DNA of 64,000 nucleotides from Bacteroidales bacterium (GCA_019429365.1 JAHYJD010000007.1:5073-69072), one strand, 5' to 3'; counted from the first letter of the stretch, positions 1,028 through 20,189 are shown. Program-made: numbers and translations. The notes: generated by a model from the sequence alone, not told the origin.

Positions 1028-2422
<1,395 letters not shown>

Positions 2423-5600: not shown

Positions 5601-6178
5601 TTGATACTGAAATTTCCATTGACAAGATTGATAACGAGCGACTGATGCTGTATTCTGAAAACGGCATGGGTAATGGACGAATCGATAATATTTACGATGT
5701 TATTTATGTGGATGTGGACCATTTCGACCGCTTGAAAACAGAGAAGATGCGCGATGAAATAGAAATGCTTAACCAGCAAATGGTTAAGGAAAATCGCAAA
5801 TACATCCTTATTGGGCCTGGGCGCTGGGGCACCCGCGATCGTTTTATTGGCATTCCGGTGGTATGGTCACAGATTTCCAATGCCAGAATAATAGTGGAAG
5901 TTAGCCTCGAAAACTTCCCGCTCGATGCTTCCCTGGGCTCGCACTTCTTTCATAATGTCATTTCAATGAATGTGGGATATTTTTCTGTCAAACACAACGA
6001 CCTGATTGACTATATTAACTGGGACGAATTGAACAAGGCCAGCGTGAAGCAGCAAACGCGCTTTTTCAGGCACGTGCGGTTCGAAAAGCCAGTAGAGGTA
6101 GTTATGGACGGCAAAAAACGCGCTTCGCTCATTTACTTCCCACAAGAAGATAATATTGCTGAAAACGAAACCTTATGA
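2621..6178 (+). CDS. multidomain protein: coiled-coil + GAF-like sensor, two receiver-like modules, PPDK_N-type ATP-grasp (PEP/pyruvate-binding) domain, conserved C-terminal module
   Basis: 1185-aa ORF. The sensor region contains EGPFLMEERQLISNIANLI. Receiver-like modules are ILLVANLYD...FDLVIVMM and ILLVEDS...CIISD...FINK. ATP-grasp motifs are GGKGRGLAFIN, IRSSSLFEDS..PFAGIFDT and MAVIIQEVVG. The C-terminus is GPGRWGTRD...GIPVVWSQIS...LGSHFFHN. Confidence 0.7.
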   Translation: MENKEESGTIRESGFFSSSANQALSISQEEIQRLIAEKRERLKELGAINQTVSILKEERPVGEMLREIVKVLPPAWQFPENAVARLKYGQEVYLSSNRFRESRWSQRRSFETIDGREGSLEVFYLAEHPQLDEGPFLMEERQLISNIANLITGHLNTQIGKNLLKKSAADLQEATQSRKEQEHAAKNRHLLQKFLIKHNSDRDIYHDLMQYKVREILLVANLYDAYNIEQEGRFFEQVTGEYYQLNLSSAPRITGVSTPEEALEKLQEKHFDLVIVMMGVDKTTPIQLSRIIKQIYPSTPIFLLLNNNSDIAMFEDGNKQIAPIDKIFVWNGDSKVFLAMVKYNEDRYNVENDIRIGMVRVILLVEDSARYYSRYLPILYSIVIEQTQQLIEEVNTDELYKLLKMRVRPKVLLASNYKDAVQLFNKFKDNLLCIISDARFEKDGNYADDAGISLINYAKEQIPDLPTVLQSSDPANAQKAYELKATFINKNSENLKQDLQSFINYYLGFGNFVYKDEEGRKDIAIARSMKEFQNHLRTIPEKSLIYHARKNHFSHWLMARGEIQIAKRIKPLKVDDFQSPGSLREFLMNVIEECIRDKQKGKVINFEESALLDETNIVSMASGSLGGKGRGLAFINMLINNFNFAELVPDICILSPRTTIIGTEEFERFLQNNNIAEKITHETDYETLKEIFMAGRLTESLQRRLKAYLSIIHRPLAIRSSSLFEDSLMQPFAGIFDTFLLPNNHPDIKVRLDQAMNAIKLVFASIFSPTASAYFQAVNYKIEEEKMAVIIQEVVGNEYEGYFYPHISGVAQSFNFYPFSYMQPDEGFAVAAVGLGKYVVEGEKTYRFSPVHPQLEIYTPRDLFKNSQVHFFAIDMKKQDINLLEGEDAGLTKLEIDKAEMHGALKHCASVFDISNERIIPGITHPGPRVINFANILKYDYIPLAKTIEVILDIVSESMGTPVEIEFAVDLNKDKQGRAAFYLLQIKPLIKNIIDTEISIDKIDNERLMLYSENGMGNGRIDNIYDVIYVDVDHFDRLKTEKMRDEIEMLNQQMVKENRKYILIGPGRWGTRDRFIGIPVVWSQISNARIIVEVSLENFPLDASLGSHFFHNVISMNVGYFSVKHNDLIDYINWDELNKASVKQQTRFFRHVRFEKPVEVVMDGKKRASLIYFPQEDNIAENETL

Positions 6179-9153
6179 CCCTGAAATCGAAATACAAATA
6201 CAACGAACAATTTGCCACGGACCATTACGAATTTGCAGAGATAGCCTACGAGGACCTCATGCAGAAACGCATTATCAACGTATTGCTGATTTGCAGCAAC
6301 TACGATGCTTTTATGCTCGAGGAAGACGGGCGCATAAACGAAAAGATTTTCCTGGAATACACTTCCAAAAATTTGCGCTACCCACCGCAGTTTACCAAAG
6401 CCAGCTCGTCAGAAGAAGCGTTTGAATACCTGGAGAAAAAGGAGTTCGACCTGGTCATAACCATGTTGAATGTAGGTAAGATCGATGCCTTTGAAATGGC
6501 CAAAAAGGTCAAAAAACGCTACCCGAAAATTCCCATTGTGGTGCTGACGCATTTTTCGCGCGAGGTTTCTATTAAACTTTCGAACGAAGACCTTAGCGGC
6601 ATCGACTATGTGTTTTCATGGCTGGGCAACTCCAGCCTGCTGCTGGCCATCATAAAGCTGCTGGAAGACCGCATGAACGCCGAATTCGACATCGATGTGA
6701 TTGGCGTGCAGGCCATTTTGCTGGTCGAAGACTCTATCAGGTATTATTCATCGTACCTGCCTTCTATTTACAAAGTTATTTTCGATCAGACCAACGAATT
6801 GATGACTGAAGGGCTGAACGAACACCGCAAAACAATGCGAATGCGGGCCAGACCTAAAATTTTGCTGGCCAAAACCTACGAAGAGGCCGTCAGCCTTTTT
6901 GAGAAATACAATCAGAACCTGCTAGGAGTAATCTCTGATATCAGCTATTCCCGTAAGGGGAAAAGAGACAGCCAGGCGGGCATCAGGTTTGCCCGGCACA
7001 TTCGAAAAGTGGATAGCCAGATTCCGATCATGCTTCAATCGTCGGACGACTGGCAGGAAGAAATCATGCAGGAGATCAGGGTGGCATTCATAAACAAATA
7101 TTCTAAAACCCTGTTGGTAGAACTTAAGCAGTACATTCGGGAGAATTATGGCTTTGGCGATTTTGTCTTTAAGGATCCATTGACAAGCCGCGAGGAGGAT
7201 CGCGCCAACAACCTGCATTCGCTCCAGGTAAAAATTGCCAGGGTGCCCCCAAAAAGCCTTGAATACCATGTTTCAAACAACCATTTTTCGCGTTGGCTCA
7301 AAGCCAGGGCGCTTTTTTCTTTAGCCAATGTGTTTGCCGAAAAAAGTCGTGAAGATTTTAACAACATTGAAGAAGTAAGAAACTACCTGATTGACACGAT
7401 TGCCAACTACCGCCGCATGAAGGGGCGGGGAATCATCGCCAGCCATTTCGACGAGTACGCTGTTTTTACACGCCTTGGCGATGGGCAGTTGGGCGGAAAG
7501 GCACGTGGCCTGGCTTTCATTGACTCAGTAATAAACAAGCACAAAATAATGTATAACTGGGAAGGCGTTACGGTGGCCATTCCCCGAACAGTGGTCATTA
7601 CCACCGATATGTTCGACGAGTTCATGGAAGAAAACAGCTTGTACGACCTGGCCCTTTCCAATACCAGCGACGAGGAGATACTTGACCGTTTTGTGCAGTC
7701 GCGCACCCCTTCCAGGCTCAAATCCTACGTCAGAGATATTGTGGGGTTTTTTAATGCCCCTTTGGCCATTCGCTCCAGCAGCCTGTTGGAAGACAGTCAT
7801 TATCAGCCTTTTGCCGGTGTGTATTCCACATACATGATTCCCAACAACCACGCCGAAAAAACGGTGCGCATGCAACAGCTCGAACAAGCCATAAAAAGCG
7901 TGTATGCTTCCGTTTTTTTCCGCGAAAGCAAAGCCTATATTGCAGCTACCAGCAATGTGATCGACGAAGAAAAAATGGCCGTGGTAATACAGGAAGTGTC
8001 GGGTCGCTCCTATGGCAACAAGTTTTACCCCACGCTGTCGGGAGTAGCCCGTTCGGTAAACTTCTACCCTATTGAACCAGAACGCTATGAAGATGGCGTG
8101 GCCAACATTGCATTTGGCCTGGGAAAAACCATTGTGGAAGGAGGGATTTCTTTGAGATTCTCCCCTAGATATCCTGAAAAATCCTTGCAGCTCTCCAACC
8201 CTGAATTTGCTTTGCGCGATAGCCAGAAAGAATTCTACAGCCTTAACCTCGACCCCGAAAAGTTCATCCCCAGCATCGACGATGCTGACAACCTTTTTAA
8301 ACTCAGGATTAAGGAAGCCGTGTCTGATGCCTCTCTTAAATATGTTGCATCTACCTACGACTACGAGGACCACATGGTTCGCGATGGTCTTTACGATACT
8401 GGAAAAGTCATCGTTACTTTTGCCAATATTCTGAGGCACAATGTTTTTCCTTTGGCAGGTATACTTCAAAACCTGCTCGAGATTGGCCAGAAGGAAATGA
8501 ACAACCAGGTGGAAATCGAATTTGCAGCCAACATGGATGTACCAACAGGACAAAATAAAGTTTTTTACTTCCTTCAGATCAGACCCGTGGTCGAAATGCA
8601 GGAAAAACTCCGCATTAAGGTTAACACCTGCTTCCCCGAAAAGTCTATCATTATCAGCCAGCAGGCTTTGGGCAATGGGCTGATTGAAAACATCCGCGAT
8701 TTCATTTATGTGAAGCCCGACGCCTTCAATCCGGCCAACACAAAGGAAATAGCAGCCATCATTGACCACCTCAACAGCCAGTTTGTAAGCAACGGTCGCA
8801 ACTATATTTTGGTAGGACCCGGGCGCTGGGGGTCGGCCGATCCCTGGCTAGGTATACCGGTAAAATGGGCCCAGATTTCGGCCGCACGGCTCATTGTGGA
8901 AGCGGGCATGAAGGACTTCCATATCGATCCCAGCCAGGGAACCCACTTTTTTCAGAACCTGACCTCTTTCAACGTAGGGTATTTTACCGTAAATCCCTTT
9001 ATCGGAGAGGGGCATTACGACCTGGATTTTCTGAACCAGAAAAAGGCCGTTTACGAGGACCAGTTCGTCAGGCATCTTAAATTCCACGACCCTATCATCA
9101 TTAAAATAGATGGAAGCAAAAAGGCCGGAATCGTTTTAAAACCAGAAAAATAA
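6175..9153 (+). CDS. paralog of the preceding gene: two receiver-like modules + PPDK_N-type ATP-grasp domain + conserved C-terminal module (no GAF-like N-terminus)
   Basis: 992-aa ORF whose ATG overlaps the upstream stop (ATGA at 6175-6178). Motifs are VLLICSNYD...FDLVITML, ILLVEDS...GVISD...FINK, GGKARGLAFID, IRSSSLLEDS..PFAGVYST, MAVVIQEVSG, and GPGRWGSAD...GIPVKWAQIS...QGTHFFQN. Confidence 0.7.
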   Translation: MTLKSKYKYNEQFATDHYEFAEIAYEDLMQKRIINVLLICSNYDAFMLEEDGRINEKIFLEYTSKNLRYPPQFTKASSSEEAFEYLEKKEFDLVITMLNVGKIDAFEMAKKVKKRYPKIPIVVLTHFSREVSIKLSNEDLSGIDYVFSWLGNSSLLLAIIKLLEDRMNAEFDIDVIGVQAILLVEDSIRYYSSYLPSIYKVIFDQTNELMTEGLNEHRKTMRMRARPKILLAKTYEEAVSLFEKYNQNLLGVISDISYSRKGKRDSQAGIRFARHIRKVDSQIPIMLQSSDDWQEEIMQEIRVAFINKYSKTLLVELKQYIRENYGFGDFVFKDPLTSREEDRANNLHSLQVKIARVPPKSLEYHVSNNHFSRWLKARALFSLANVFAEKSREDFNNIEEVRNYLIDTIANYRRMKGRGIIASHFDEYAVFTRLGDGQLGGKARGLAFIDSVINKHKIMYNWEGVTVAIPRTVVITTDMFDEFMEENSLYDLALSNTSDEEILDRFVQSRTPSRLKSYVRDIVGFFNAPLAIRSSSLLEDSHYQPFAGVYSTYMIPNNHAEKTVRMQQLEQAIKSVYASVFFRESKAYIAATSNVIDEEKMAVVIQEVSGRSYGNKFYPTLSGVARSVNFYPIEPERYEDGVANIAFGLGKTIVEGGISLRFSPRYPEKSLQLSNPEFALRDSQKEFYSLNLDPEKFIPSIDDADNLFKLRIKEAVSDASLKYVASTYDYEDHMVRDGLYDTGKVIVTFANILRHNVFPLAGILQNLLEIGQKEMNNQVEIEFAANMDVPTGQNKVFYFLQIRPVVEMQEKLRIKVNTCFPEKSIIISQQALGNGLIENIRDFIYVKPDAFNPANTKEIAAIIDHLNSQFVSNGRNYILVGPGRWGSADPWLGIPVKWAQISAARLIVEAGMKDFHIDPSQGTHFFQNLTSFNVGYFTVNPFIGEGHYDLDFLNQKKAVYEDQFVRHLKFHDPIIIKIDGSKKAGIVLKPEK

Positions 9154-9264
9154 ATTTCCTGGCTTTCCTTTGTTATCTGAAAATTAAGGGCTAATTTCGT
9201 CCCGGAAATCAACGTTAATTTTTTAACATCACTCCTATTAAAAACTTTTTAAATCTGTTAAATT

Positions 9265-10602
9265 ATGGACTTAGAAAAGATCATGGCAGACCTGGAGAAA
9301 AAAAATCCGGGACAACCAGAATTTCTTCAGGCAGTAAAGGAAGTACTTGAAACGATTGAAGACGTTATCAAAGAAAACCCCAAGTACGAGGCAAACAACA
9401 TTGTTGAAAGAATTATTGAGCCCGACCGGGTAATCTCCTTCAAGGTAGAATGGCTCGACGACAAAGGCAATGTGAACGTAAACCGCGCTTTCCGCGTGCA
9501 GTTCAACAACGCTATTGGTCCTTACAAAGGTGGCATGCGTTTTCACCCCAGTGTAACCCTCGGGGGTCTGAAGTTCCTGGGTTTTGAACAAACCTTCAAG
9601 AACGCCCTTACAACCCTGCCCATGGGTGGTGCTAAAGGCGGCAGCGATTTCAACCCTAAAGGAAAATCCAACGCTGAAATCATGCGTTTCTGTCATGCGC
9701 TGATGTCAGAACTTTTCAAATATATTGGCCCCGACACCGACATTCCCGCTGGCGACATTGGCGTGGGTGGTCGCGAAATTGGCTACATGTACGGAATGTA
9801 CAAGAAACTTACCAACACCCACAATGGCGTGTTTACCGGCAAAGGCCGCAACTGGGGCGGCAGCCTCATCCGCCCGGAAGCCACCGGTTTCGGTAACGTT
9901 TACTTTGCAGAGGAAATGCTCAAGACCCGCGGCGACTCCATGAAAGGTAAGATCGTTGCCGTTTCAGGTTTTGGAAACGTATCATGGGGCTCAATCATTA
10001 AAGCCACCCAGCTTGGTGCCAGAGTGGTTACCATTAGTGGTCCCGACGGTTACGTATACGATCCTGATGGCATCAGCGGAGAAAAAATCGACTACCTGCT
10101 CGAGCTGCGCGCCTCCAACCAGGACATCGTGAAGCCATACACCTATGAATTCCCCAATGCCCAGTTTTTCGAAGGCAAGCGTCCTTGGGAAGTAAAGTGC
10201 GATGTAGCCCTCCCATGCGCTATCCAGAACGAACTCAACGCCCAGGATGCCCAAAACCTGGTTAACAATGGCGTAATTTGCGTTTCTGAAGGTGCCAACA
10301 TGCCCTGCACCCCCGAAGCCATGGAAATTTTGCTTAAGGCAAAAATCCTTTACGCTCCCGGAAAAGCCTCTAACGCCGGTGGTGTAGCCACTTCGGGCCT
10401 GGAACAGACCCAGAATGCCATGAAACTGAACTGGACTGCCGAAGAAGTGGAAGAAAAACTTCGCCAGATTATGATAAACATCCACGAAGCTTGTGTGAAG
10501 CACGGCAAGGAAGAGGATGGATACGTTAACTATGTGAAAGGCGCCAATGTGGCTGGCTTTATAAAAGTTGCCGACGCCATGATCGATCAGGGCGTTATTT
10601 AA
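9265..10602 (+). CDS. gdhA: glutamate dehydrogenase, paralog 2
   Basis: 445 aa with GPYKGGMRFHP, LPMGGAKGGSDFNPKG and the Rossmann motif GFGNVSWG. It is colinear with paralog 1 along its whole length. Confidence 0.9.
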   Translation: MDLEKIMADLEKKNPGQPEFLQAVKEVLETIEDVIKENPKYEANNIVERIIEPDRVISFKVEWLDDKGNVNVNRAFRVQFNNAIGPYKGGMRFHPSVTLGGLKFLGFEQTFKNALTTLPMGGAKGGSDFNPKGKSNAEIMRFCHALMSELFKYIGPDTDIPAGDIGVGGREIGYMYGMYKKLTNTHNGVFTGKGRNWGGSLIRPEATGFGNVYFAEEMLKTRGDSMKGKIVAVSGFGNVSWGSIIKATQLGARVVTISGPDGYVYDPDGISGEKIDYLLELRASNQDIVKPYTYEFPNAQFFEGKRPWEVKCDVALPCAIQNELNAQDAQNLVNNGVICVSEGANMPCTPEAMEILLKAKILYAPGKASNAGGVATSGLEQTQNAMKLNWTAEEVEEKLRQIMINIHEACVKHGKEEDGYVNYVKGANVAGFIKVADAMIDQGVI

Positions 10603-10626
10603 GCTCAATTCATTCAGAGAAAAAAA

Positions 10627-10656
10627 AGCTGTGCGGAAAACCGCACAGCTTTTTTT
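10627..10656 (+). terminator. rho-independent terminator after gdh paralog 2
   Basis: 10-bp stem agctgtgcgg/ccgcacagct, aaaa loop, then a T6 run. An A7 run upstream allows bidirectional use. Confidence 0.8.
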
Positions 10657-10668
10657 ATAAAAATAAAC

Positions 10669-10683
10669 GACATATGCAAGAAA
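10669..10683 (+). promoter_or_regulatory. 15-mer GACATATGCAAGAAA shared with the gdh paralog 1 upstream region
   Basis: Exact match to the - strand of 2475-2489. It lies 86-100 nt upstream of the NuoE-like ATG (10769). Confidence 0.3.
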
Positions 10684-10703
10684 TATTTTTTAAAAAAATA
10701 TTT
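10681..10703. repeat. 23-nt perfect A/T palindrome (aaatatttttt-a-aaaaaatattt)
   Basis: Read directly from the sequence. It overlaps the 3' end of the shared 15-mer, upstream of the NuoE-like operon. Confidence 0.6.
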
Positions 10704-10768
10704 TTTTAAATCTGATCAAAATCTTCAATTTTCCTTAATTTTCGCCCATAAACCAAAACACAGGTTAC

Positions 10769-11290
10769 ATGCGAGTGAAAAGGATTGCCCCCGAACCCGT
10801 TGCCCCTGTTGCCGAACCCAGTGTCGACCTTTCGTTAATAGACTCATTAATAGCGAAATACAAAGGGAAACAAGGCAACCTCATTCCCCTCTTACAGGGC
10901 ACACAAGAAATTTTTGGCTTCATTCCGCGCGAAGCTTTCCTGAAACTGCACAGCGACACCGGTCTCAGTCTCAGCGAGCTATACGGGGTGGCAACCTTCT
11001 ATGCACAGTTCAGGCTTACCCCTTCCGGGAAACACATAATTAAAATGTGCCACGGTACTGCTTGCCATGTGCAGAGTGTAACTGCCATTACCGACGAGCT
11101 GCTCGATTTCCTTGAGGTAAAAGACGGTGAGACTACCAGCGATGGATTGTTTACCATCGAAACAGTGGCCTGTCTGGGTTGCTGCTCCCTGGCACCGGTG
11201 ATGATGATCGACGAGGAGACCCATGGTAAGCTCACCCCAAAGGAAGCATTGAAAATCATTAAAGAAATACGGCGCAACGAAGCCCTTTAA
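10769..11290 (+). CDS. NuoE/HydC-like thioredoxin-fold [2Fe-2S] ferredoxin subunit
   Basis: 173 aa with Cys motif MCHGTACH...VACLGCCSLAPV, typical of NADH dehydrogenase subunit E-type proteins. Confidence 0.8.
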   Translation: MRVKRIAPEPVAPVAEPSVDLSLIDSLIAKYKGKQGNLIPLLQGTQEIFGFIPREAFLKLHSDTGLSLSELYGVATFYAQFRLTPSGKHIIKMCHGTACHVQSVTAITDELLDFLEVKDGETTSDGLFTIETVACLGCCSLAPVMMIDEETHGKLTPKEALKIIKEIRRNEAL

Positions 11291-11308
11291 ACCTTAAAGC
11301 CAGAGTGT

Positions 11309-13087
11309 ATGAAAAAGACAACCGTAATAGTGGGTTTGGGAAGTTGCGGCATAGCTGCAGGGGCTGGAAAAACTTTCAGTGAGTTTCAGCGGATAAAGGC
11401 CGCCGACAAACTCGATTTCGAGCTTAAAAAAACCAGTTGCGTGGGTATGTGTTTCCGCGAACCCCTGGTGGAAATCATCGACGAAAGCGGAAGCTACCTT
11501 TACGGACAGGTCGACCCAGCCAAAGCCGACGAGATCATCGAAAAACATATAAAAAACTTTTCTCCCATTCCTGAATACATTGTTCAGAGCGAGAGGTTCC
11601 CCACTCCCGAGCAGTCGTTTTTCGAGGGGCAGGTAAAAATTGCGCTTCGCAACTGCGGGCATATGGATCCTGAGAACATTGAAGAATACGAAGCCCGCAA
11701 TGGTTACGCAGCTATTCGCAAAATTGCAAACAACTTTATGAATCCCGATCAGGTGATACAAATGGTTATCGATTCGGGCATGCGTGGCCGCGGAGGCGGT
11801 GGTTTTTCCACCGGCATGAAATGGAAGTTTGCCCGCAACTACGACGCTCCGCAGAAGTACGTGATTTGCAATGCCGACGAGGGTGACCCGGGCGCTTTTA
11901 TGGACCGCTCCATACTCGAGGGCGACCCACACGGCGTGCTGGAAGGGATGATTATTTGCGGCTATGCCATTGGCGCCAGCGAAGGTTACATTTATTGCAG
12001 GGCCGAATACCCACTGGCCATTAAGCGCCTGAACATTGCCATTGAACAAGCCCGCAAAAAGGGTTACCTGGGCAAAGGCCTCTTTGGTATAGAGCATTTT
12101 AATTTCGACATTAAAATTAAAGAAGGCGCAGGAGCTTTTGTGTGCGGTGAAGAAACCGCCCTGATCGCCTCCATCGAAGGCAGGCGTGGCATGCCACGGC
12201 GCAGACCGCCATTCCCGGCCCAGTCGGGTCTGTGGAAAAGTCCTACCAACATTAACAATGTCGAGACCTTCGTCAACATTCCATGGATCATCTTCAACGG
12301 ACCGCAGGCATATGCTGCCATGGGCACCGAAAAGAGCAAGGGCACCAAGGTTTTTGCCCTTACCGGAAAAATTAAGCACGGCGGCCTTGTTGAAGTTCCC
12401 ATGGGCATGACCATCAGAGATATTATATACAACCTTGGTGGCGGAATTGCCAATGGTAAGAAGTTCAAAGCTGTGCAGCTGGGCGGCCCTTCGGGAGGCT
12501 GTGTCCCAGAATACCTCTCGCACACCCAAGTCGATTACGACTCGGTAAACGCCACCGGCGCAATCATGGGATCAGGCGGCATGGTGGTTATGGACGAGAC
12601 TACTTGTGTGGTGGATATTGCGCGTTTCTTCCTCGATTTCACACAGAAAGAGTCGTGTGGGAAATGTACATTTTGCCGCATTGGCACCAAGCGTATGCTC
12701 GAAATCCTGACGCGGATTACACAAGGCGAAGGCCAAGAAGGCGACATCGAACTGCTTGAAGAACTCGCCCACAACATCAAGGACGGATCATTGTGCGGGC
12801 TTGGACAAACAGCACCTAACCCGGTGCTTACCACCATCAAATATTTCCGCGACGAATATGAAGCACATATCCGCGACAAAAAGTGCCCGGCACTTAGCTG
12901 CAAAAAACTACTTACATACAAGGTCGACCAGGAGAAATGTACGGGTTGCATGGCCTGCACCAAAGGCTGTCCGGTCGATGCCATCGAAGGCGGCAAGCGC
13001 GAACCCCATTTTATCCTGCAGGAAGTTTGTATTAAATGCGGTGTATGCTTCACCAAATGCAAGTTTGGCGCTATCCAATTAAGTTAA
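11309..13087 (+). CDS. NuoF/HydB-like FMN- and NAD(H)-binding flavoprotein subunit with extra Fe-S domains
   Basis: 592 aa. N-terminal thioredoxin-like domain has GLGSCGIAAGA...CVGMCFREP. Then come GRGGGGFSTGMKW, the Fe-S motif ESCGKCTFCRIG, and a C-terminal 2x[4Fe-4S] region (CTGCMACTKGCP, CIKCGVCFTKC). Confidence 0.85.
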   Translation: MKKTTVIVGLGSCGIAAGAGKTFSEFQRIKAADKLDFELKKTSCVGMCFREPLVEIIDESGSYLYGQVDPAKADEIIEKHIKNFSPIPEYIVQSERFPTPEQSFFEGQVKIALRNCGHMDPENIEEYEARNGYAAIRKIANNFMNPDQVIQMVIDSGMRGRGGGGFSTGMKWKFARNYDAPQKYVICNADEGDPGAFMDRSILEGDPHGVLEGMIICGYAIGASEGYIYCRAEYPLAIKRLNIAIEQARKKGYLGKGLFGIEHFNFDIKIKEGAGAFVCGEETALIASIEGRRGMPRRRPPFPAQSGLWKSPTNINNVETFVNIPWIIFNGPQAYAAMGTEKSKGTKVFALTGKIKHGGLVEVPMGMTIRDIIYNLGGGIANGKKFKAVQLGGPSGGCVPEYLSHTQVDYDSVNATGAIMGSGGMVVMDETTCVVDIARFFLDFTQKESCGKCTFCRIGTKRMLEILTRITQGEGQEGDIELLEELAHNIKDGSLCGLGQTAPNPVLTTIKYFRDEYEAHIRDKKCPALSCKKLLTYKVDQEKCTGCMACTKGCPVDAIEGGKREPHFILQEVCIKCGVCFTKCKFGAIQLS

Positions 13088-13114
13088 GAATTTCCGTTCC
13101 GAAAAAAATATCTT

Positions 13115-16100
13115 ATGAGTAAACTTAATATCATTCTCAACGGACGCATTGTGCAGGGGCTTCCCGGCGAAACCATTCTGGAGCTGGCTCGCCGACAAGG
13201 CATTGAAATACCCACCCTTTGTCACGACGATCGCCTGGAGCCCTTTTCTTCGTGTTACGTTTGCGTAGTGGAGGTGGAAGGCATGCGCGGTTTGCAGCCA
13301 TCCTGTTCTACCAAGATCACCGAGGGCATGCGCATAGAAACGGAAAATGAAAGGGTGAAAAAATCCCGAAAAATGTCGCTGGAGCTTATGGCCAGCAACC
13401 ATTATGCCGATTGCGTTGCACCTTGTCGCGAAACTTGCCCGGCCGGAGTAGATGTACAGGGCTATATTGCCATGATCAACAAAGGCATGCATCGCGAGGC
13501 TGTGGAGCTGATAAAAAACACCAATCCCTTGCCAGCCATTTGTGGAAGGGTATGTGTGCGTCCATGCGAACTGGCCTGCCGCCGAAACCTGGTCGAAGGT
13601 GTGGGTGTGGGCATCGACTACCTGAAACGTTATACTTCCGATATTGATCTGGAATCGCATGTTCGCTTCCTGCCGAACCAGAAACCCGAAACCGGCAAAA
13701 GAGTGGCTATCATTGGAGCTGGTCCGGGAGGGCTAAGCGCCGCATTCTTCCTGGCAAAAGAAGGCCATCATGTAGAAATTTTCGAAGGAAACGCACATGC
13801 CGGAGGCATGCTCAGATATGGCATTCCGCCATACCGCCTGCCAAACGACATTATTGACAAGGAGGTGGAAGGCATAACTGCCCTTGGCGTGGAAATCCAT
13901 TACCACATGAAGTTAGGCGAAAACCTCAGCTATGCCGAACTAAAAAGCAACTTCGATGCCGTGATTCTGGCCATTGGCTCACAAAACGGCACCCGTATTG
14001 GCTGCGAAAACGATGATGCAGGGAATATCTTTTCGGGGATCGACTTTTTGCGCAACATGGAGGCCACCGGGCAGAAATACGACTTCAGCGGCAAAAAAGT
14101 AGGTGTGATTGGCGGAGGTAATACGGCCATGGACTGCTGCCGCACCGCAAAACGATGCGGTGCAAAGGAGGTAACCGTAATTTACCGTCGTACCGAAAAG
14201 GAAATGCCTGCCAACCCTATTGAAATACACGAGTCGAAACTCGAAGGAATCAACTATCTGTTCCTTACCGCCCCGGCCAGGGTAAACCCAGATGATAACG
14301 GCAACATAAAGTCTTTGACTTGCTTCCGGATGGAACTGGGCGAGCCAGATGCCTCAGGCAGGCGCCGCCCCGTTAAGGTCGAAGGCTCAGACTTTGATGT
14401 GGAGCTCGACATTGTACTGGCGGCCATTGGACAAAAAACCAACGTTAATTTCATCAACGACATTAGCAACCATGCCGGGCAGGAACTTATCATTAACAAA
14501 TGGGGCGACATTGCTGCTGACCCGAAAACCCTGCGCACCAGTATCGACAACGTGTTTGCCTGCGGCGATGGGGTAACCGGTCCTGCCACACTCATCGAGG
14601 CCATTGCTCAAGGACGTTTAGCGGCACAGAGCTGCAACAAATACCTGCACGGGAAGGAAGTTACTCCGCCACCATACGAATTCCTGAGCAAACGCGACAA
14701 CTTCCAGGAACAGCTTAAATCTGATTATGAGGCCTGGTATGAAAAACAGTGGCGCGAAGAAATGCCTACACTCGACCCAGCTGCCCGCGACAACTTTGAG
14801 GAAGTGGAACTGGGTTATACTACGGATGCTGCCATAAAGGAAACACGCAGATGCATGGAATGCGGCTGCAGCGAACTCTATACCTGCGACCTGAAAAAGT
14901 ATTCCACACATTACGAGGCCCGGCAAGAACACTTTAAGGGTGACTTTCGCAATTACCAGGTGCGGTTCGATCATCCGTTTGTGGAGATCGACAACAACAA
15001 GTGTATCCTTTGCAGTCGCTGTGTGCGTATTTGCGATGAAGTGGTGGGTGCTAAAGCCCTGGGACTGATCAATCGCGGCTTCGATACCTTTGTGGCTCCC
15101 AGCCTGGGAGAATCACTGCTGCATACCAATTGCGAGTCATGCGGAATGTGTATCGACACTTGCCCTACCGGCGCCATTACTGAGAATGTACCCTTCAAAC
15201 CCGGCCCGGTTCCCCTCGATACTTTTAAAACCATTTGTAATTATTGCTCGGTGGGTTGCCAAATCAATCTCCATCACAAATCGGGTTTCTTTGCCAGGGC
15301 AACGGGTAGTAAAGGTTTGATCAACAAGGATGGCAGCATTTGCCGCTACGGGAAATTCGGCTATCGCTACCTGAACGACCAAAGCCGGATCACCAAACCG
15401 CTTCTCAAAGAAAACGGAAAATTCAAACAAATCAGTTTCGATAAGGCATTTGAAATCATAAAGGAAAAGATTACCAAGGCCGATCCTGCCCAAACCGCAT
15501 TTTATGTGGGTGCACGACTGACCAATGAAGAAATGTACCTTGCCCAAAAAATTGCCCGGACCGGAGCCAAAACCAATAATATATCGAGTTTTCATTATAT
15601 GGATCGTGGCTCGGGTTATTCTGAAAACAGCAGAAACAACGTGCCTTTCGATCAGATTTATTCGGCCCGCCTGATTTATATCATGGGCAGCGAACTAAAT
15701 ATGGAAAATGCCGTGCCTGGATTTTATGTCAATAATCTGAGGCAAACAAACGGAATCAAGGTGGAGGTTATTACCTCTCAGGAGCCAAGCAGCTTAGAAC
15801 ATAAAGCCGATGCGCTGTTGCGAATAAAATCTTACGAACATTTCCTCAGGGCAGCAAACCATTACATACTGAGCAAACAATTGCAAAACAGCGTTTTTAT
15901 TGATGACCATTGCAATGGGTTTGAGGAATATCAAGAGGTTTTGTTGGCTGAAGATTTTGATAGTTTACTGGAAAAAGCTGGCTGTAGTAAGATTGAGCTG
16001 GCCACTTTCGTGGAAAACTATAATAATGAGCACCAAGCCGTGATCCTTTTTTCTGAGAAACATTTAAGCTCCGGTGCCTGCCACGAAATGCACAACCTGG

Positions 16101-16810
16101 CTTATCTAACCGGAAAATCGGGAAAGAATGCAAGTGGATTGATCAGCTTGAAGGAAAAGAACAATTCCCAGGGACTGTTTGACATGGGCGCATGCGCGGC
16201 CATAGCCCCTGGCGGAAAAAATATGACCTCCGGAAAGGTTCGGGAACACCTCCAAAAAGAGTGGAAAATCAGCGAGTTGCCAGATGAAATCAACCAGGAC
16301 CAATGGTCATTGCTAAGAAACGGCCTGATTAAGAACGCTTTCATTCTTAGCGAAGACCCCGTTGGATGCGCCATTAAAAAGGAAGAAATTCAGCAAATTC
16401 TGGAGAAAATTGATTTTCTTGTGGTTCAGGATCTCTTCTTGAGCGAAACGGCAGCCATGGCCGACCTGATTTTGCCGGCATCGCTGCACTTCGAAACCGG
16501 AGGTAGTTTTACCAACACCCAGAAGTTTATTCAGCAGTTTGATGCCACCTTTGCCTCTGCTAATGAAATGAGTAGTTTTGAACAGCTGCAAAGGCTGGGC
16601 AAATCACTGGGATTGGAATTAAACTATGAGAGTCCGGCCGCTGTGCTGCTGGAGGCTGCCTCCGTTATTCAACGTGCACCTGAAAATGGCTGGGTACCCT
16701 ACCGCTTTGTTACCCCAACCTCCGTCCACCCGCCCCGCCGCTTCGACCATGGTTGCGATTACCTGGTGAAGTATTTTGACGATGCATGGGAAAAAGCATT
16801 TAACCATTAA
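13115..16810 (+). CDS. fusion protein: N-terminal [2Fe-2S] ferredoxin + GltD-like NAD(P)H/FAD oxidoreductase module + NuoG-like Fe-S region + molybdopterin-oxidoreductase-like domain
   Basis: 1231 aa. 2Fe-2S region is CHDDRLEPFSSCYVCVVEV. GltD-like motifs are CPAGVDV, ICGRVCVRPCELACRR, VAIIGAGPGGLSAA, VIGGGNTAMDC and CGDGVTGPATLIEAIAQGR. Fe-S motifs are CMECGC, CILCSRCVRIC and CESCGMCIDTCP. ICNYCSVGCQINL marks the MopB-type N-terminal cluster. Confidence 0.8.
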   Translation: MSKLNIILNGRIVQGLPGETILELARRQGIEIPTLCHDDRLEPFSSCYVCVVEVEGMRGLQPSCSTKITEGMRIETENERVKKSRKMSLELMASNHYADCVAPCRETCPAGVDVQGYIAMINKGMHREAVELIKNTNPLPAICGRVCVRPCELACRRNLVEGVGVGIDYLKRYTSDIDLESHVRFLPNQKPETGKRVAIIGAGPGGLSAAFFLAKEGHHVEIFEGNAHAGGMLRYGIPPYRLPNDIIDKEVEGITALGVEIHYHMKLGENLSYAELKSNFDAVILAIGSQNGTRIGCENDDAGNIFSGIDFLRNMEATGQKYDFSGKKVGVIGGGNTAMDCCRTAKRCGAKEVTVIYRRTEKEMPANPIEIHESKLEGINYLFLTAPARVNPDDNGNIKSLTCFRMELGEPDASGRRRPVKVEGSDFDVELDIVLAAIGQKTNVNFINDISNHAGQELIINKWGDIAADPKTLRTSIDNVFACGDGVTGPATLIEAIAQGRLAAQSCNKYLHGKEVTPPPYEFLSKRDNFQEQLKSDYEAWYEKQWREEMPTLDPAARDNFEEVELGYTTDAAIKETRRCMECGCSELYTCDLKKYSTHYEARQEHFKGDFRNYQVRFDHPFVEIDNNKCILCSRCVRICDEVVGAKALGLINRGFDTFVAPSLGESLLHTNCESCGMCIDTCPTGAITENVPFKPGPVPLDTFKTICNYCSVGCQINLHHKSGFFARATGSKGLINKDGSICRYGKFGYRYLNDQSRITKPLLKENGKFKQISFDKAFEIIKEKITKADPAQTAFYVGARLTNEEMYLAQKIARTGAKTNNISSFHYMDRGSGYSENSRNNVPFDQIYSARLIYIMGSELNMENAVPGFYVNNLRQTNGIKVEVITSQEPSSLEHKADALLRIKSYEHFLRAANHYILSKQLQNSVFIDDHCNGFEEYQEVLLAEDFDSLLEKAGCSKIELATFVENYNNEHQAVILFSEKHLSSGACHEMHNLAYLTGKSGKNASGLISLKEKNNSQGLFDMGACAAIAPGGKNMTSGKVREHLQKEWKISELPDEINQDQWSLLRNGLIKNAFILSEDPVGCAIKKEEIQQILEKIDFLVVQDLFLSETAAMADLILPASLHFETGGSFTNTQKFIQQFDATFASANEMSSFEQLQRLGKSLGLELNYESPAAVLLEAASVIQRAPENGWVPYRFVTPTSVHPPRRFDHGCDYLVKYFDDAWEKAFNH

Positions 16811-16821
16811 AAAGAAAAAGT

Positions 16822-17277
16822 ATGAAAACCTTCAGTTCGCTCGATGAGATCCTCGACTTTGCCATGAATGCCGAGCAGGAAGCCGTTGATTTCTACACTC
16901 AGCTAGCCACACAGCAGAAAAATCAGCAAATAAGGGAAGTTTTCCTGGAATTTGCACGGGAGGAAGTGAACCACAAGGCTCGTCTGCAGAAAATAAAAGA
17001 CGAGCGGCTTTTCGACATGGAGGTGGAAAAGGTAACCGACCTGAAGATTGCCGATTATGTAATCAGCGCCAAGCCCTCGCCCAATATGGAATATGCTGAC
17101 GCGCTGGTGCTGGCCATGAAAAAGGAAAAGGCTGCTTTTAAGCTATATACCGCCCTTTCTGAGCGCACCCACAATACCGAACTCAGCAAGGTATTCAAGG
17201 CACTTGCCATTGAAGAATCGAAACACAAACTTCGCTTCGAACTTGAATACGACGAATATGTGATGCGCGAAAACTAA
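16822..17277 (+). CDS. ferritin-like / rubrerythrin-family diiron protein (no rubredoxin domain)
   Basis: 151 aa with paired E...ExxH signatures (AEQEAVDFY, REEVNHK, AIEESKHK). It starts 11 nt after the fusion gene. Confidence 0.65.
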   Translation: MKTFSSLDEILDFAMNAEQEAVDFYTQLATQQKNQQIREVFLEFAREEVNHKARLQKIKDERLFDMEVEKVTDLKIADYVISAKPSPNMEYADALVLAMKKEKAAFKLYTALSERTHNTELSKVFKALAIEESKHKLRFELEYDEYVMREN

Positions 17278-17283
17278 ACAAAA

Positions 17284-17312
17284 AGCCATTCCCAAAAATT
17301 CAGGGAATGGCT
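17284..17312. terminator. bidirectional hairpin between convergent genes
   Basis: 10-bp stem agccattccc/gggaatggct with a 9-nt loop. Confidence 0.6.
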
Positions 17313-17351
17313 TTAAAAATGTATGTGTGACATCAAATCACCAGGTAATCA

Positions 17352-17954
17352 TTACTCACTCTTAACTTTTATGGTGCAGCCAATGGCGCGGGTAACTGAT
17401 GGCTCGGGGGTTTTGCCTGCCATAAGTGCATGGATGGCGTTGGCCAGGTACCTTTCACTAACCTGGCTGGCATCGCGCGGACTGTCGTCGATACCACCGA
17501 TATAGGCTACTTTGAGGTCTGTGCCAACACGTTCGAGCAAATATACGTGGGGAGTGTGGGTTGCACCATATTTGGGATAAATCTTCTGACCATCGTCAAA
17601 AACATAGGCAAAAGGAAACCCCTTTTCCTTGGCACGGACCTGCATTAATTCATAAGAATCCTGTGGCTGAACCTCCGGATCATTAGGATTGATTGCAATT
17701 ACCGGAAAACCTTTGGGTGCAAACTCATTGTGCAGTTCGATCATGCGATCTTCGTAGGCAACTACAAAGGGACAGTGATTACATGAAAAAATCACTACAA
17801 AACCTTTGGCATCAGGGTAGTCGGCCATGGATATGTACTTACCGTCCACATTGAGCAAACGGAAATCGGTTGCTACATCACCCACCTTATAACCTTGGGC
17901 AAAACTGGCGGCTGCCAGAAAAAGAATACTGAGAAAAATACTCACTCGCTTCAT
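17352..17954 (-). CDS. secreted thioredoxin-fold (redoxin/AhpC-TSA-like) protein
   Basis: 200 aa with a signal peptide (MKRVSIFLSILFLAAASFA) and a CxxC-type motif, SCNHCPF. Confidence 0.7.
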   Translation of the reverse strand: MKRVSIFLSILFLAAASFAQGYKVGDVATDFRLLNVDGKYISMADYPDAKGFVVIFSCNHCPFVVAYEDRMIELHNEFAPKGFPVIAINPNDPEVQPQDSYELMQVRAKEKGFPFAYVFDDGQKIYPKYGATHTPHVYLLERVGTDLKVAYIGGIDDSPRDASQVSERYLANAIHALMAGKTPEPSVTRAIGCTIKVKSE

Positions 17955-17965
17955 TGTAATTGGAT

Positions 17966-18466
17966 TTAGTTTATTAATTGTTGAATTAATGCTTCAAGTT
18001 CTTCAAAATGGAATTCGCGCTGATAAAAACCTCTGAAATCCTTGCTATATATAACTGTTGCAGGAATTGCCCCGGTCCATTCTTCACTGACAAGAGGGAT
18101 CCAGCGGTTGGGGTTTCTTTCGTCTAAAAGAATAACCTCACTTTGCACATTCATATCGCTGACAAAAGGGATTACCCTGGACTCAAGCTGATTGGGGAAG
18201 TCAAGGCTTACCAGAAGCACTTTGACCTTTTTGCTTTCATACACTTCATTCAGTTTTTCAAAGGCTGGAATCTCACGTACACAAGGCGCACACCAGGTTG
18301 CCCAGAAATTCACCACATACACACTGTCGGTTTCCAGGTAAAGCATTGGCTCAAACTCATCAAAACTCAACACCTTGATGACTTGACCATTCCTGGCATG
18401 GATAACACTTTGAAAACTAAAGAAAAAAACAGAAATCAGGATCAGGTTACGAAAAGTTTGTCTCAT
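17966..18466 (-). CDS. TlpA-like thiol:disulfide oxidoreductase
   Basis: 166 aa with a signal/anchor sequence and the WATWCAPCVREIP active-site motif. Confidence 0.7.
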   Translation of the reverse strand: MRQTFRNLILISVFFFSFQSVIHARNGQVIKVLSFDEFEPMLYLETDSVYVVNFWATWCAPCVREIPAFEKLNEVYESKKVKVLLVSLDFPNQLESRVIPFVSDMNVQSEVILLDERNPNRWIPLVSEEWTGAIPATVIYSKDFRGFYQREFHFEELEALIQQLIN

Positions 18467-18597
18467 ATTTTTGGTAAGAAATTGTCAATTAGACATATAC
18501 CTTTATCGACACTCGTAATTTAAAAAGGTTTAAAAGCAAAAGACTAACAACAAAATAAAATGTTTGTTTAACTCCGGGAGCAGGTATTTTCCATTTC

Positions 18598-18628
18598 AAA
18601 AAAAAAGGCCATCACAAGGACGGCCTTT
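18598..18628 (-). terminator. terminator downstream of rny
   Basis: On the - strand, stem aaaaggcc/ggcctttt with an 11-nt loop is followed by a long T run. Confidence 0.5.
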
Positions 18629-18647
18629 TGGATATAAGAGTTTAATT

Positions 18648-20189
18648 CTATTTGGCGTATGCCACGGCCCTTGTTTCCCTGATCACGGTAATTTTAATTT
18701 GTCCGGGATAGGTCATTTCAGTCTGAATTTTTTTGCTGAGGTCGTACGAAATTTGTTCGGCATCCTTATCTGAAACCTTTTCGCTGCCAACAATAACGCG
18801 AAGTTCACGGCCAGCCTGTATGGCGTATGTCTTGACCACGCCGGGGTACGAAAGGGCCAGTTCCTCAAGATCGTTAAGCCGCTTGATGTAGGATTCGACC
18901 ACTTCGCGCCTCGCACCGGGCCTGGCACCAGAAATGGCATCACAAACCTGGATAATGGGCGAAATCAAACTTGTCATTTCCACTTCGTCGTGGTGGGCAC
19001 CAATGGCGTTCACAATTTCGGGATGTTCCTTAAATTTTTCAGCCAGTTTCATGCCCAGCATGGCATGAGGAAGGTCGGGCTCGTTGTCGGGCACCTTGCC
19101 AATATCGTGCAATAAACCTGCGCGCTTGGCCAGTTTAGGATTAAGCCCAAGCTCAGAGGCCATGGTGGCAGCCAGGTTGGCCACTTCCTTGGAGTGCTGC
19201 AATAAGTTCTGACCATAAGAAGACCGGTATTTCATTTTACCGATCAGGCGGATAAGTTCGTGGTGGAGGTTGTGAATACCAAGGTCGATGGCAGTGCGCT
19301 TTCCAACCTCAATAATTTCCTGGTCAATTTGTTTTTTAACCTTAGCCACTACCTCTTCGATACGTGCAGGGTGAATGCGACCATCAGTAACCAGCTTGTG
19401 CAGCGACAGGCGGGCAATTTCGCGACGCACCGGATCAAATCCGCTTAGAATAATAGCTTCGGGCGTGTCGTCCACAATAATTTCAATGCCTGTGGCGGCT
19501 TCCAGGGCACGTATGTTGCGCCCTTCACGGCCAATGATGCGGCCTTTTACTTCATCGTTTTCAATCGGAAAAACTGAAACGGAGTTTTCAATGGCCACTT
19601 CTGTAGCCGTACGCTGCAATGAGTGGATCACCAGTTTACGAGCCTCGTTATGGGCGGTAAGCTTGGCTTCATCCATCATATCCTTAATAAAAACCTGTGC
19701 TTCCGACTGGGCTTCAGACTTCAGGGTTTCAACCAGTTCGGATTTTGCTTCATGGGCAGACAAGCCACTAATTGATTCGAGCTTCTCGAGCTGCTGTTTG
19801 TAAGTTTTCTCCAGATCGGCTTGCTTTCGCGAAACTATTTCCATCTGGTTGCTTAGGTTCTCCTGGAGGGCATTCACTTCTTTTTGCTTGCGCTGGTAGT
19901 CCTCCATTCGCTGAGAGTAACCAAGTTCTTTTTGCTTAAGCTTGCTTTCGGCAGCATTAATCTCCTGGGTCTTCTCAAAAACATATTTCTCGTGTTCGGC
20001 TTTAAGCTGGAGGAACTTCTCCTTTGCCTGCAGCATTTTTTCTTTCTTCAGCACTTCAGCTTCCGAAACGGCTTCTTTCAGAATATGCTGGCTTTTCTTT
20101 ACGATAGCCTTCCGCATAATGGTACCGGCAATAAGCCCTCCCAAACCGAGCGAAACCACTGCGATAATGCCGTAGATTAATATTTCCAT
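18648..20189 (-). CDS. rny: ribonuclease Y
   Basis: 513 aa. It has an N-terminal TM helix, a long coiled-coil, a KH region ([15 protein letters not shown]) and an HD domain (HSKEVANLA...GLLHDIGK). Confidence 0.9.

Follow-up and report, generated by a model that had tools for sequence, protein, structure and literature searches.

A four-gene locus with a putative NfnABC-type transhydrogenase

We analysed a 64,000-nucleotide stretch of DNA from a Bacteroidales bacterium (GCA_019429365.1, JAHYJD010000007.1:5073-69072; 'the window'), which corresponds to contig C83 of a genome of 3.57 Mb (G000; 95.9% complete) whose closest public relatives are uncultured Bacteroidales. The locus in question, at positions 10769–17277, would encode an electron-bifurcating transhydrogenase followed by a small di-iron protein. 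An earlier note on this DNA had described four tightly packed + strand genes separated by 18, 27 and 11 nt, and the coordinates of the four open reading frames agree with this exactly. In the order nfnC–nfnB–nfnA–F, they specify a NuoE-like subunit, a NuoF-like subunit, a large fusion protein and the di-iron protein. The product of nfnC (stnA or BfuC; 10769..11290, +) has 173 amino acids (aa) and a single [2Fe-2S] site (Pfam 2Fe-2S_thioredx, E 4.6e-46), and nfnB (stnB or BfuB; 11309..13087, +) encodes a 592-aa flavin mononucleotide (FMN)/NAD(H) subunit with the Pfam domains Complex1_51K, SLBB and NADH_4Fe-4S. According to Pfam and PDB matches, the 1231-aa product of nfnA (stnC or BfuA; 13115..16810, +) joins a 2Fe-2S domain, a GltD/NfnL-like domain and a region resembling NuoG and formate dehydrogenase (Fdh). 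The last gene, F (16822..17277, +), encodes a 151-aa ferritin/rubrerythrin-like four-helix-bundle protein (Pfam Rubrerythrin, 2.6e-17, and Ferritin_2).

The three redox genes (nfnCBA, 10769–16810) very probably encode a type-1 Bfu enzyme, NfnABC, also called Sporomusa-type Nfn or StnABC. For each subunit, the best PDB relatives are the three solved NfnABC/Stn structures, and every defining trait of Nfn-Bfu/Stn that can be read from sequence is found in nfnCBA. Enzymes of this family catalyse a bifurcating transhydrogenase reaction (PMC7483475, PMC9304861, PMC10482914, PMC11829005). This activity, and assembly into a tetramer of heterotrimers, are known only from the enzymes of Sporomusa ovata, Caldicellulosiruptor saccharolyticus and Thermococcus sibiricus. 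StnABC of S. ovata was first described in 2020 (PMC7483475) and its structure has been reported (PMC10482914), as has that of an archaeal Nfn-Bfu (PMC12018979); Schut et al. defined the class as 'type 1 Nfn-Bfu' in 2022 (PMC9304861). The earlier note had proposed a Bfu-type complex that balances NADH, ferredoxin and NADP(H). The best matches to NfnABC/StnABC and the retention of all cofactor ligands bear out this central idea. It is correct but no longer novel, the family having been on record since 2020. Nor is the GltD-NuoG fusion novel: since the solved NfnABC/Stn large subunits share its architecture, it is by its domain content the usual large subunit of the Nfn-Bfu family.

For the NuoE-like subunit, the best PDB matches were 9bov_C (6e-54), 8oh5_A (2e-48) and then 9n5u_C, and the [2Fe-2S] ligands, corresponding to the C1 cluster, are C94, C99, C135 and C139. 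The NuoF-like subunit was placed by ranking PDB bit scores and by NCBIfam cut-offs, standing in for a BfuB reference tree. It scored 875 bits against 8oh5_B, 862 against 9bov_B and 851 against 9n5u_B, compared with 617–757 bits against HydB proteins; no Fdh beta or complex I subunit exceeded 408 bits, and no Nqo1/NuoF chain of complex I exceeded 378 bits. With scores that also fell below the NCBIfam cut-offs for respiratory NuoF (TIGR01959, 488 versus 559; NF010120, 370 versus 389), it lies outside respiratory complex I, in keeping with the earlier proposal.

The B1 [4Fe-4S] site of the NuoF-like subunit is formed by C450, C453, C456 and C496, and its NADH loop GMRGRGGGGFS (residues 157–167) corresponds to the loop GLRGRGGAGFP of the C. 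saccharolyticus (Csac) enzyme (PMC11829005). Both accessory domains named in the earlier note are present, namely a C-terminal, ferredoxin-binding 2x[4Fe-4S] domain (residues 537–589, with C544–C554 and C574–C584) and an N-terminal thioredoxin-like domain, detected as a partial 2Fe-2S_thioredx match at residues 31–79. The 2Fe-2S cluster assigned to the latter is in doubt. This domain contains only three Cys (C13, C44 and C48), which align Cys-for-Cys with NfnB/StnB; it scored 95–98 bits against NfnB/StnB versus 44–48 bits against HydB and is, as judged from these alignments, typical of the Nfn type. Because the equivalent site of C. saccharolyticus NfnB binds Zn and not 2Fe-2S (PMC11829005), a 2Fe-2S cluster is not assured here, and the site may hold either Zn or 2Fe-2S.

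The large subunit matched Fer2_4, Fer4_20, Pyr_redox_2 (GltD-like), Fer4_Nqo3, Molybdop_Fe4S4 and Molybdopterin in Pfam; the same scan returned neither Fe_hyd_lg_C (the H-cluster domain) nor Molydop_binding (the C-terminal pterin-capping domain). Its best PDB matches were 9bov_A (1e-239), 8oh5_C (5e-233) and 9n5u_A (1.5e-182). Along the protein we found the ligands of the [2Fe-2S] cluster A1 (C36, C47, C50 and C64), the motif HxxxCxxxCxxxCP of a His-ligated cluster (H96–C108), the GltD-type Cys block (C143, C147, C151 and C155), a CxxCxC..C cluster (C580–C591), a dicluster domain with two CxxCxxCxxxC motifs (C630–640 and C673–683) and the Molybdop_Fe4S4 ligand set (C708, C711, C715 and C743). 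In Csac, cluster A7 is bound by Cys108, Cys147, Cys151 and Lys170 (PMC11829005); the Cys3Lys site here comprises C108, C147, C151 and K171, the last aligned to Csac K170. All seven cluster motifs and K171 were invariant across 119 homologs. The nucleotide-binding motifs are those of StnC (PMC7483475), with GAGPGG at residue 201 (GxGxxG) for flavin adenine dinucleotide (FAD) and GGGNTA at residue 333 (GxGxxA) for NADPH.

Residues 744–932, the stretch that carries the Cys/Sec metal ligand in Fdh-type enzymes, contain no Cys and no in-frame stop. We read the Fdh-like domain as a non-catalytic scaffold with a dead pterin site and no Mo or W ligand. The absence of Fe_hyd_lg_C and the Cys-free stretch agree with the earlier statement that there is no H-cluster and no catalytic-ligand motif in the molybdopterin-like domain. 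In the solved Csac NfnA the pterin site is likewise empty, with no pterin density (PMC11829005), and formate oxidation was not observed for Stn (PMC7483475).

Three further features of nfnA were recorded. Cys342 and Cys348 (AMDCCRTAKRCGA, residues 341–348) are invariant in the 119 homologs, which come from Bacteroidota and Ignavibacteriota, and the solved Csac and S. ovata enzymes have other residues at these positions. A tail motif 'F..GCD' (residues 1210–1220; C1214, 95% conserved) sits outside the alignment to the solved proteins. At one related locus (L042, G246:C65, 5973–7621), nfnA is broken into two frames near GltD-like residue 230, by either a frameshift or an assembly error.

Proposed reaction and place in the metabolism of the host

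By analogy with the solved homologs, nfnCBA would form a soluble flavin/iron-sulphur (Fe-S) complex that reversibly couples 2 NADPH + NAD+ + oxidised ferredoxin to 2 NADP+ + NADH + reduced ferredoxin. NADP(H) would bind at the FAD of the GltD-like domain in the large subunit, from which single electrons would travel along A7 (Cys3Lys), A6, A3, A2 and A1 to the B1–FMN–C1 'flavobicluster' of the NuoF/NuoE-like pair. There, NAD(H), at the FMN, and ferredoxin, bound by the C-terminal 2x[4Fe-4S] domain, would be the two partners in bifurcation or confurcation, with the Fdh-like domain serving as a cofactor-less scaffold. The likely direction in vivo is from NADH and reduced ferredoxin to NADPH, which could feed biosynthesis, including ammonium assimilation by glutamate dehydrogenase.

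The genome, described as that of a fermentative Bacteroidales, encodes pyruvate:ferredoxin oxidoreductase. A genome-wide search returned no GltD-like gene besides nfnA, so the organism appears to have no NfnSL. No credible large subunit of glutamate synthase (GOGAT) was found either, the best Glu_synthase (PF01645) match being partial and of 25 bits, although at 95.9% completeness its absence is unproven. Several HydABC-type FeFe-hydrogenase loci are present, in which the H-cluster genes adjoin other NuoF paralogs on other contigs (C221, C8 and C187); the nfnCBA complex is therefore probably a separate enzyme.

It could be argued that the complex is not a transhydrogenase and works instead as formate dehydrogenase, as hydrogenase, as the NADH dehydrogenase module of a respiratory enzyme or as a partner of glutamate synthase. 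Homologs carry public database names such as 'formate dehydrogenase major subunit', 'molybdopterin-dependent oxidoreductase' and 'NADH-quinone oxidoreductase subunit', and NCBIfam gives partial hits, each below its cut-off, to Fdh-alpha, NuoG, NuoF and GltD. However, nfnA has neither a Cys/Sec ligand region nor a Molydop_binding domain, and the Stn and Csac data cited above show no formate oxidation (PMC7483475) and no pterin density (PMC11829005). We consider any of these identities very improbable. Respiratory complex I (NuoEFG) was rejected on the NuoF cut-offs and the lack of nuo membrane-arm genes nearby, bifurcating HydABC because the 1231-aa protein has no H-cluster domain, and glutamate synthase GltBD because the genome offers no credible GltB partner. 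A Rub-Bfu enzyme was discarded as well, since a BfuA gene separates BfuB from the di-iron gene.

Some observations do weigh against the assignment as an NADPH-forming transhydrogenase. The Fdh-like half of nfnA is far more diverged from the solved enzymes (~200–260 bits over 650 aa), and the whole protein is 53–59 aa longer than the solved large subunits. The direction of the reaction is one that we infer, and glucose-6-phosphate dehydrogenase is present in the genome, so that nfnCBA is not the sole source of NADPH. An NADPH-forming enzyme, as one of two NADPH sources, is nevertheless plausible.

In the public records of homologs (P0003, P0005, P0015, P0073 and others), the large subunit is also called 'FAD-dependent oxidoreductase', and none is called Nfn or Stn. 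Homologs of the di-iron protein are named 'rubrerythrin' or 'ferritin family protein'.

Hairpins delimit a probable single transcript

An intrinsic terminator hairpin (10621..10656, +) with a 16-bp stem followed by a T run lies 3′ of gdh2, the glutamate dehydrogenase gene upstream, and splits it from the nfn operon. Its predicted folding free energy (dG) is −24.5 kcal/mol (z −8.4), and the stem shows compensatory changes in three relatives (L010–L012). A second hairpin (17282..17314, +; dG −19.3 kcal/mol, z −5.0) is located between F and a convergent TlpA-like gene and probably marks the end of the operon. In the three internal gaps, the same folding analysis gave no signal and no hairpins. 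As hairpins are found at both flanks and none internally, nfnC, nfnB, nfnA and F are most likely one transcript, apart from gdh2, a call made from gaps and hairpins only. A scan for sigma-70 promoter and terminator consensus sequences gave counts at or below shuffle expectation and did not pick up either flanking hairpin, owing to the A/T-extended stem and the 9-nt loop. An RsaE match in an Rfam scan of positions 9000–18700 (29.8 bits versus a gathering score of 79) was rejected, since it is the terminator hairpin.

One 15-mer, GACATATGCAAGAAA, occurs in identical form at 2475–2489 (−) and 10669–10683 (+), ~100 nt upstream of gdh1, a second glutamate dehydrogenase gene, and of nfnC, in sense orientation at both sites. 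With up to 2 mismatches allowed, there were 2 matches versus 0.18 expected. It is exact in L010 and L011, diverged in L012 and absent from more distant relatives; conserved in the closest relatives only, it is not favoured as a general operator.

A ferritin-like di-iron gene frequently follows nfnA

The product of F contains no Cys anywhere and no rubredoxin domain. Its ligands E18, E48, H51, E102, E132 and H135 follow the pattern E/ExxH/E/ExxH and were invariant in 24 sequences, and an AlphaFold2 model consists of four long helices (mean predicted local distance difference test score, pLDDT, 87.8). In sequence and fold it is closest to 1vjx (TM1526) and 2fzf, then to rubrerythrin 1b71 and to Dps-like and bacterioferritin proteins; weak NCBIfam matches point to the MbfA erythrin domain and encapsulated ferritins. 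By these features F is a member of the ferritin-like diiron-carboxylate superfamily. A canonical rubrerythrin was rejected because helix C has a single Glu (M99..E102) with no ExxE, and there is no Cys4 rubredoxin domain. The F family is large (1857 representative clusters) and consists mostly of stand-alone proteins of ~150 aa; the best 150 representatives are nearly all stand-alone, without large fusions.

To place F in the order of the window, we sampled 150 genomes, about one per family (148 genera); an nfnA-type gene, complete or nearly so, is present in 56 of them. In 24 of these 56 families F comes immediately after nfnA in the same orientation (18 of them with gaps of ≤214 nt); it lies further off on the same contig in three, and on another contig or strand in 18. 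A phylum-wide sample of 200 genomes, only four of them from this order, contained no F homolog outside the genome of the window at E≤1e-10. F is also found directly 3′ of nfnA in relatives whose large subunits are 61–69% identical and whose flanks differ, including one Ignavibacteria genome. The earlier note had called the ferritin-like diiron gene an unusual fourth member of the operon. The association is real and conserved, but not obligatory. A search of one library of papers returned none that describes a di-iron gene within Nfn-Bfu operons.

Where F is unlinked from nfnA, it follows gdh in three families, and in two loci (L036 and L038) it stands after or beside NfnL/NfnS-like genes. Taken with the arrangements and fusions described next, these contexts favour a redox partnership of F with GltD/NuoG-type modules, without proving it.

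Individual loci show further arrangements. In three families (L020, 1838–6481; L021; L029), an unlinked F is found 3′ of cydA, cydB and a flavodiiron gene (ODP + flavodoxin), an oxygen-handling context. At L033 (G296:C3, 4259–7047), an NfnS-like gene precedes one whose 650-aa GltD-like product carries at its C terminus a di-iron domain with 49% identity to F. This fusion was the single such sequence in a search of 5.8 billion proteins and, as a singleton, is weak as a 'Rosetta stone'. L034 (G293:C451, 952–6362) has a normal nfnCBA, followed by genes for an NfnS-like protein (274 aa), an NfnL-like protein (605 aa), a 757-aa protein and a 151-aa di-iron protein; the 757-aa protein combines an N-terminal Rubrerythrin-family domain, a diverged copy of F, with a Fer4 dicluster, Molybdop_Fe4S4 and Molybdopterin-like domains. 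In two distant relatives (L016, 2871–12171; L017, 2405–12182), one of them from Ignavibacteria, classical NfnS and NfnL genes lie directly upstream of nfnC-B-A-F, placing two unrelated Nfn-type transhydrogenases in one gene string. A gene for a 99-aa 2x[4Fe-4S] ferredoxin lies downstream on the opposite strand, directly after the string in L017 and ~3 kb off in L016.

Convergent with the operon is a pair of genes for secreted TlpA/ResA-like proteins of the AhpC/TSA family (17352–18466, −). Signal peptides, CxxC motifs and TlpA/ResA matches led us to reject these two genes as peroxiredoxins or as an oxidative-stress context. The pair still adjoins the di-iron gene in genome G231, where nfnCBA is elsewhere (L019).

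Possible roles of the di-iron protein

F could be a true fourth subunit or a dedicated electron acceptor of the nfnCBA complex, a role that we regard as rather doubtful. It would then bind to the large subunit, for instance at the 'dead-end' A2–A4–A5 branch by the vestigial pterin site, and electrons from NAD(P)H and ferredoxin could be released to H2O2 or O2. This would provide a safety valve or self-protection and make the complex a hybrid of Nfn-Bfu and the predicted 'Rub-Bfu'. The position directly 3′ of nfnA in 24 of the 56 families, and in Ignavibacteria-type loci with other flanks, speaks for such a role, as do the F-like domains that are joined to a GltD-like protein in L033 and to a NuoG/Fdh-like scaffold in L034, the NfnL-like neighbours in L036 and L038, the placement after cydAB and a flavodiiron gene in three families, and the invariant di-iron ligands. 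In addition, F matches the ferritin part of the fusion protein PRK12775 (E 5.8e-5), Li et al. termed A4–A5 a dead-end branch and possible overflow pool (PMC11829005), and Schut et al. predicted rubrerythrin-linked Bfu enzymes (PMC9304861). On the other hand, the solved Nfn/Stn complexes function without an F-like protein, and among the 56 nfnA holders F was not found in 11 and is located elsewhere in 21. The L033 fusion is a singleton, no large fusions occur among the best 150 family representatives, F has neither a rubredoxin domain nor the ExxE motif of helix C, and the neighbouring 'AhpC-like' genes encode secreted TlpA/ResA-like proteins and not peroxidases.

Alternatively, F may be functionally independent, as an iron-buffering or ferroxidase-type mini-ferritin or as a general stress protein, whose common transcript or neighbourhood with nfnCBA and gdh would be no more than inherited synteny. 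This is quite possible, if short of probable. Its ligand pattern is bacterioferritin-like, the fold matches include Dps-like proteins and bacterioferritins, with weak matches to MbfA and encapsulated ferritins, and its family is chiefly one of stand-alone proteins. F is also solitary in many contexts, including beside H+-PPase, a TonB receptor or gdh. Such independence does not readily fit with the same-orientation adjacency to nfnA over 24 families at 50–65% protein identity despite changing flanks, or with the repeated association, and occasional fusion, with GltD/NuoG-type modules. We rate an independent F somewhat higher than an F that accepts electrons from GltD/NuoG-type Fe-S modules; neither is proven. 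A more far-reaching proposal, which we consider distinctly unlikely, is that Bacteroidales and their relatives have an NfnABC with an acquired di-iron component that draws on the A4–A5 branch, so that the enzyme would act also as an NAD(P)H/ferredoxin-driven peroxide or O2 reductase or in self-protection or repair upon air exposure. It would do so within a conserved gdh/receiver-ATP-grasp/nfnCBA/F module that ties NADPH supply to ammonium assimilation.

Recurring association with glutamate dehydrogenase genes

Two glutamate dehydrogenase genes had been placed immediately upstream of the operon and linked to it in function. This position is correct for gdh2 (9265..10602, +; PRK14030 type, NCBIfam NF010633, 808 bits), but gdh1 (1028..2371, −; match to an NADP-specific family, NF006929, 768 bits) is 8.4 kb away on the opposite strand, behind two receiver/PPDK_N genes from which it diverges. 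These two genes (2621–9153) encode paralogous proteins of 1185 and 992 aa with receiver, PPDK_N (ATP-grasp) and DUF5752-like domains. Given the strong, covarying terminator after it, gdh2 is probably a separate transcription unit here.

In the order-level survey, gdh was nearly universal (145 of 151 genomes). Immediately 5′ of nfnC, and in the orientation of nfnC, a gdh gene of the gdh1 type stands in L039–L041 and one of the gdh2 type in L042 and L018, and rearranged clusters of gdh, receiver/PPDK_N, nfnCBA and di-iron genes occur in L035 and L043. Altogether, at least 7 of the 57 Bacteroidales families sampled have gdh-nfnCBA-F or a rearranged version of it. The recurrence of gdh, receiver-ATP-grasp, nfnCBA and F genes in varying orders supports a functional link, albeit as a minority arrangement that, to judge by the terminator of gdh2, is not operonic in the window. 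The coupling suggested in the earlier note is thus backed by synteny and not by a shared transcription unit. The receiver/PPDK_N pair accompanies gdh and nfnCBA-F in L035, L039–L041 and L043, and brackets the nfn operon in L043.

Implications

By its sequence, nfnCBA belongs to the structurally solved NfnABC/Stn family and is unremarkable within it. Apparently unreported are only the di-iron gene that often accompanies it in Bacteroidales and the recurring association with gdh. To these, the present analysis adds family-level adjacency counts, the other settings and the fusions in which the di-iron gene occurs, the terminators on either flank, and the lack of NfnSL and GOGAT in the genome, as far as it could be searched. 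Thousands of metagenome homologs from Bacteroidota and Ignavibacteriota are misnamed and would be better read as an NADPH-forming Nfn-Bfu transhydrogenase, a renaming that alters how the metabolism of gut and digester Bacteroidales is modelled. Two questions arise from the data: whether the di-iron protein gives purpose to the unexplained dead-end Fe-S branch of the cryo-electron microscopy structures, and whether the gdh/receiver-ATP-grasp/nfn neighbourhood marks a regulated link between redox and nitrogen metabolism in organisms apparently without GOGAT.

Comparison with known systems

[quoted passage not shown] Rubrerythrin (1B71/1RYT) has an extra Glu ligand in helix C and a rubredoxin domain, neither of which is present in F. 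In the curated NCBIfam family PRK12775, NfnS, GltD and a ferritin domain are fused in one protein, to whose ferritin part F matches only weakly. A BfuBC core that is genetically linked to a di-iron protein of the rubrerythrin family is also the hallmark of Rub-Bfu, a predicted type 4 Bfu enzyme (PMC9304861). Rub-Bfu, however, by definition has no BfuA and its rubrerythrin gene is directly 3′ of BfuB, whereas here a full Nfn-type BfuA lies between BfuB and a di-iron gene whose product has no rubredoxin domain.

NfnSL (NfnAB) has the GltD/NfnL-like FAD/NADPH domain in common with nfnA (4ylf_B, 1.8e-96), but no NfnS subunit is found here or beside any GltD-like gene in the genome, and bifurcation in Nfn-Bfu sits in the BfuBC core and not at the GltD-like flavin (PMC10482914). 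The Nfn-Bfu of Thermococcus sibiricus (9N5U/9N5V; PMC12018979, PMC9304861) strongly matches all three subunits. Its 963-aa large subunit is ~270 aa shorter and has no ligands for the A4 cluster, in contrast to the full bacterial set present here. StnABC of S. ovata (8OH5/8OH9; PMC7483475, PMC10482914), the best PDB match of the NuoF-like subunit (875 bits), shares the GltD-NuoG fusion, the HxxxCxxxCxxxCP and CxxCxC..C motifs, the GxGxxA motif for NADPH and the gene order E-F-G. In that acetogen, the stn genes have Wood-Ljungdahl genes as neighbours, are located upstream of pabAB and come without a di-iron gene.

Csac NfnABC (9BOV/9BP5; Li et al. 2025, PMC11829005) has the same three subunits in the same domain order and is the best PDB match of the large (1e-239) and NuoE-like (6e-54) subunits. 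All cluster ligands, the Cys3Lys site of A7, the three-Cys N-terminus of NfnB and the dead pterin domain are common to both. The two differ in the length of NfnA (1178 aa versus 1231 aa here), in the strong divergence of the Fdh-like half, and in their hosts, a thermophilic Firmicute in the case of Csac and here a Bacteroidales in which a di-iron gene trails the operon and gdh and receiver-ATP-grasp genes are its neighbours.

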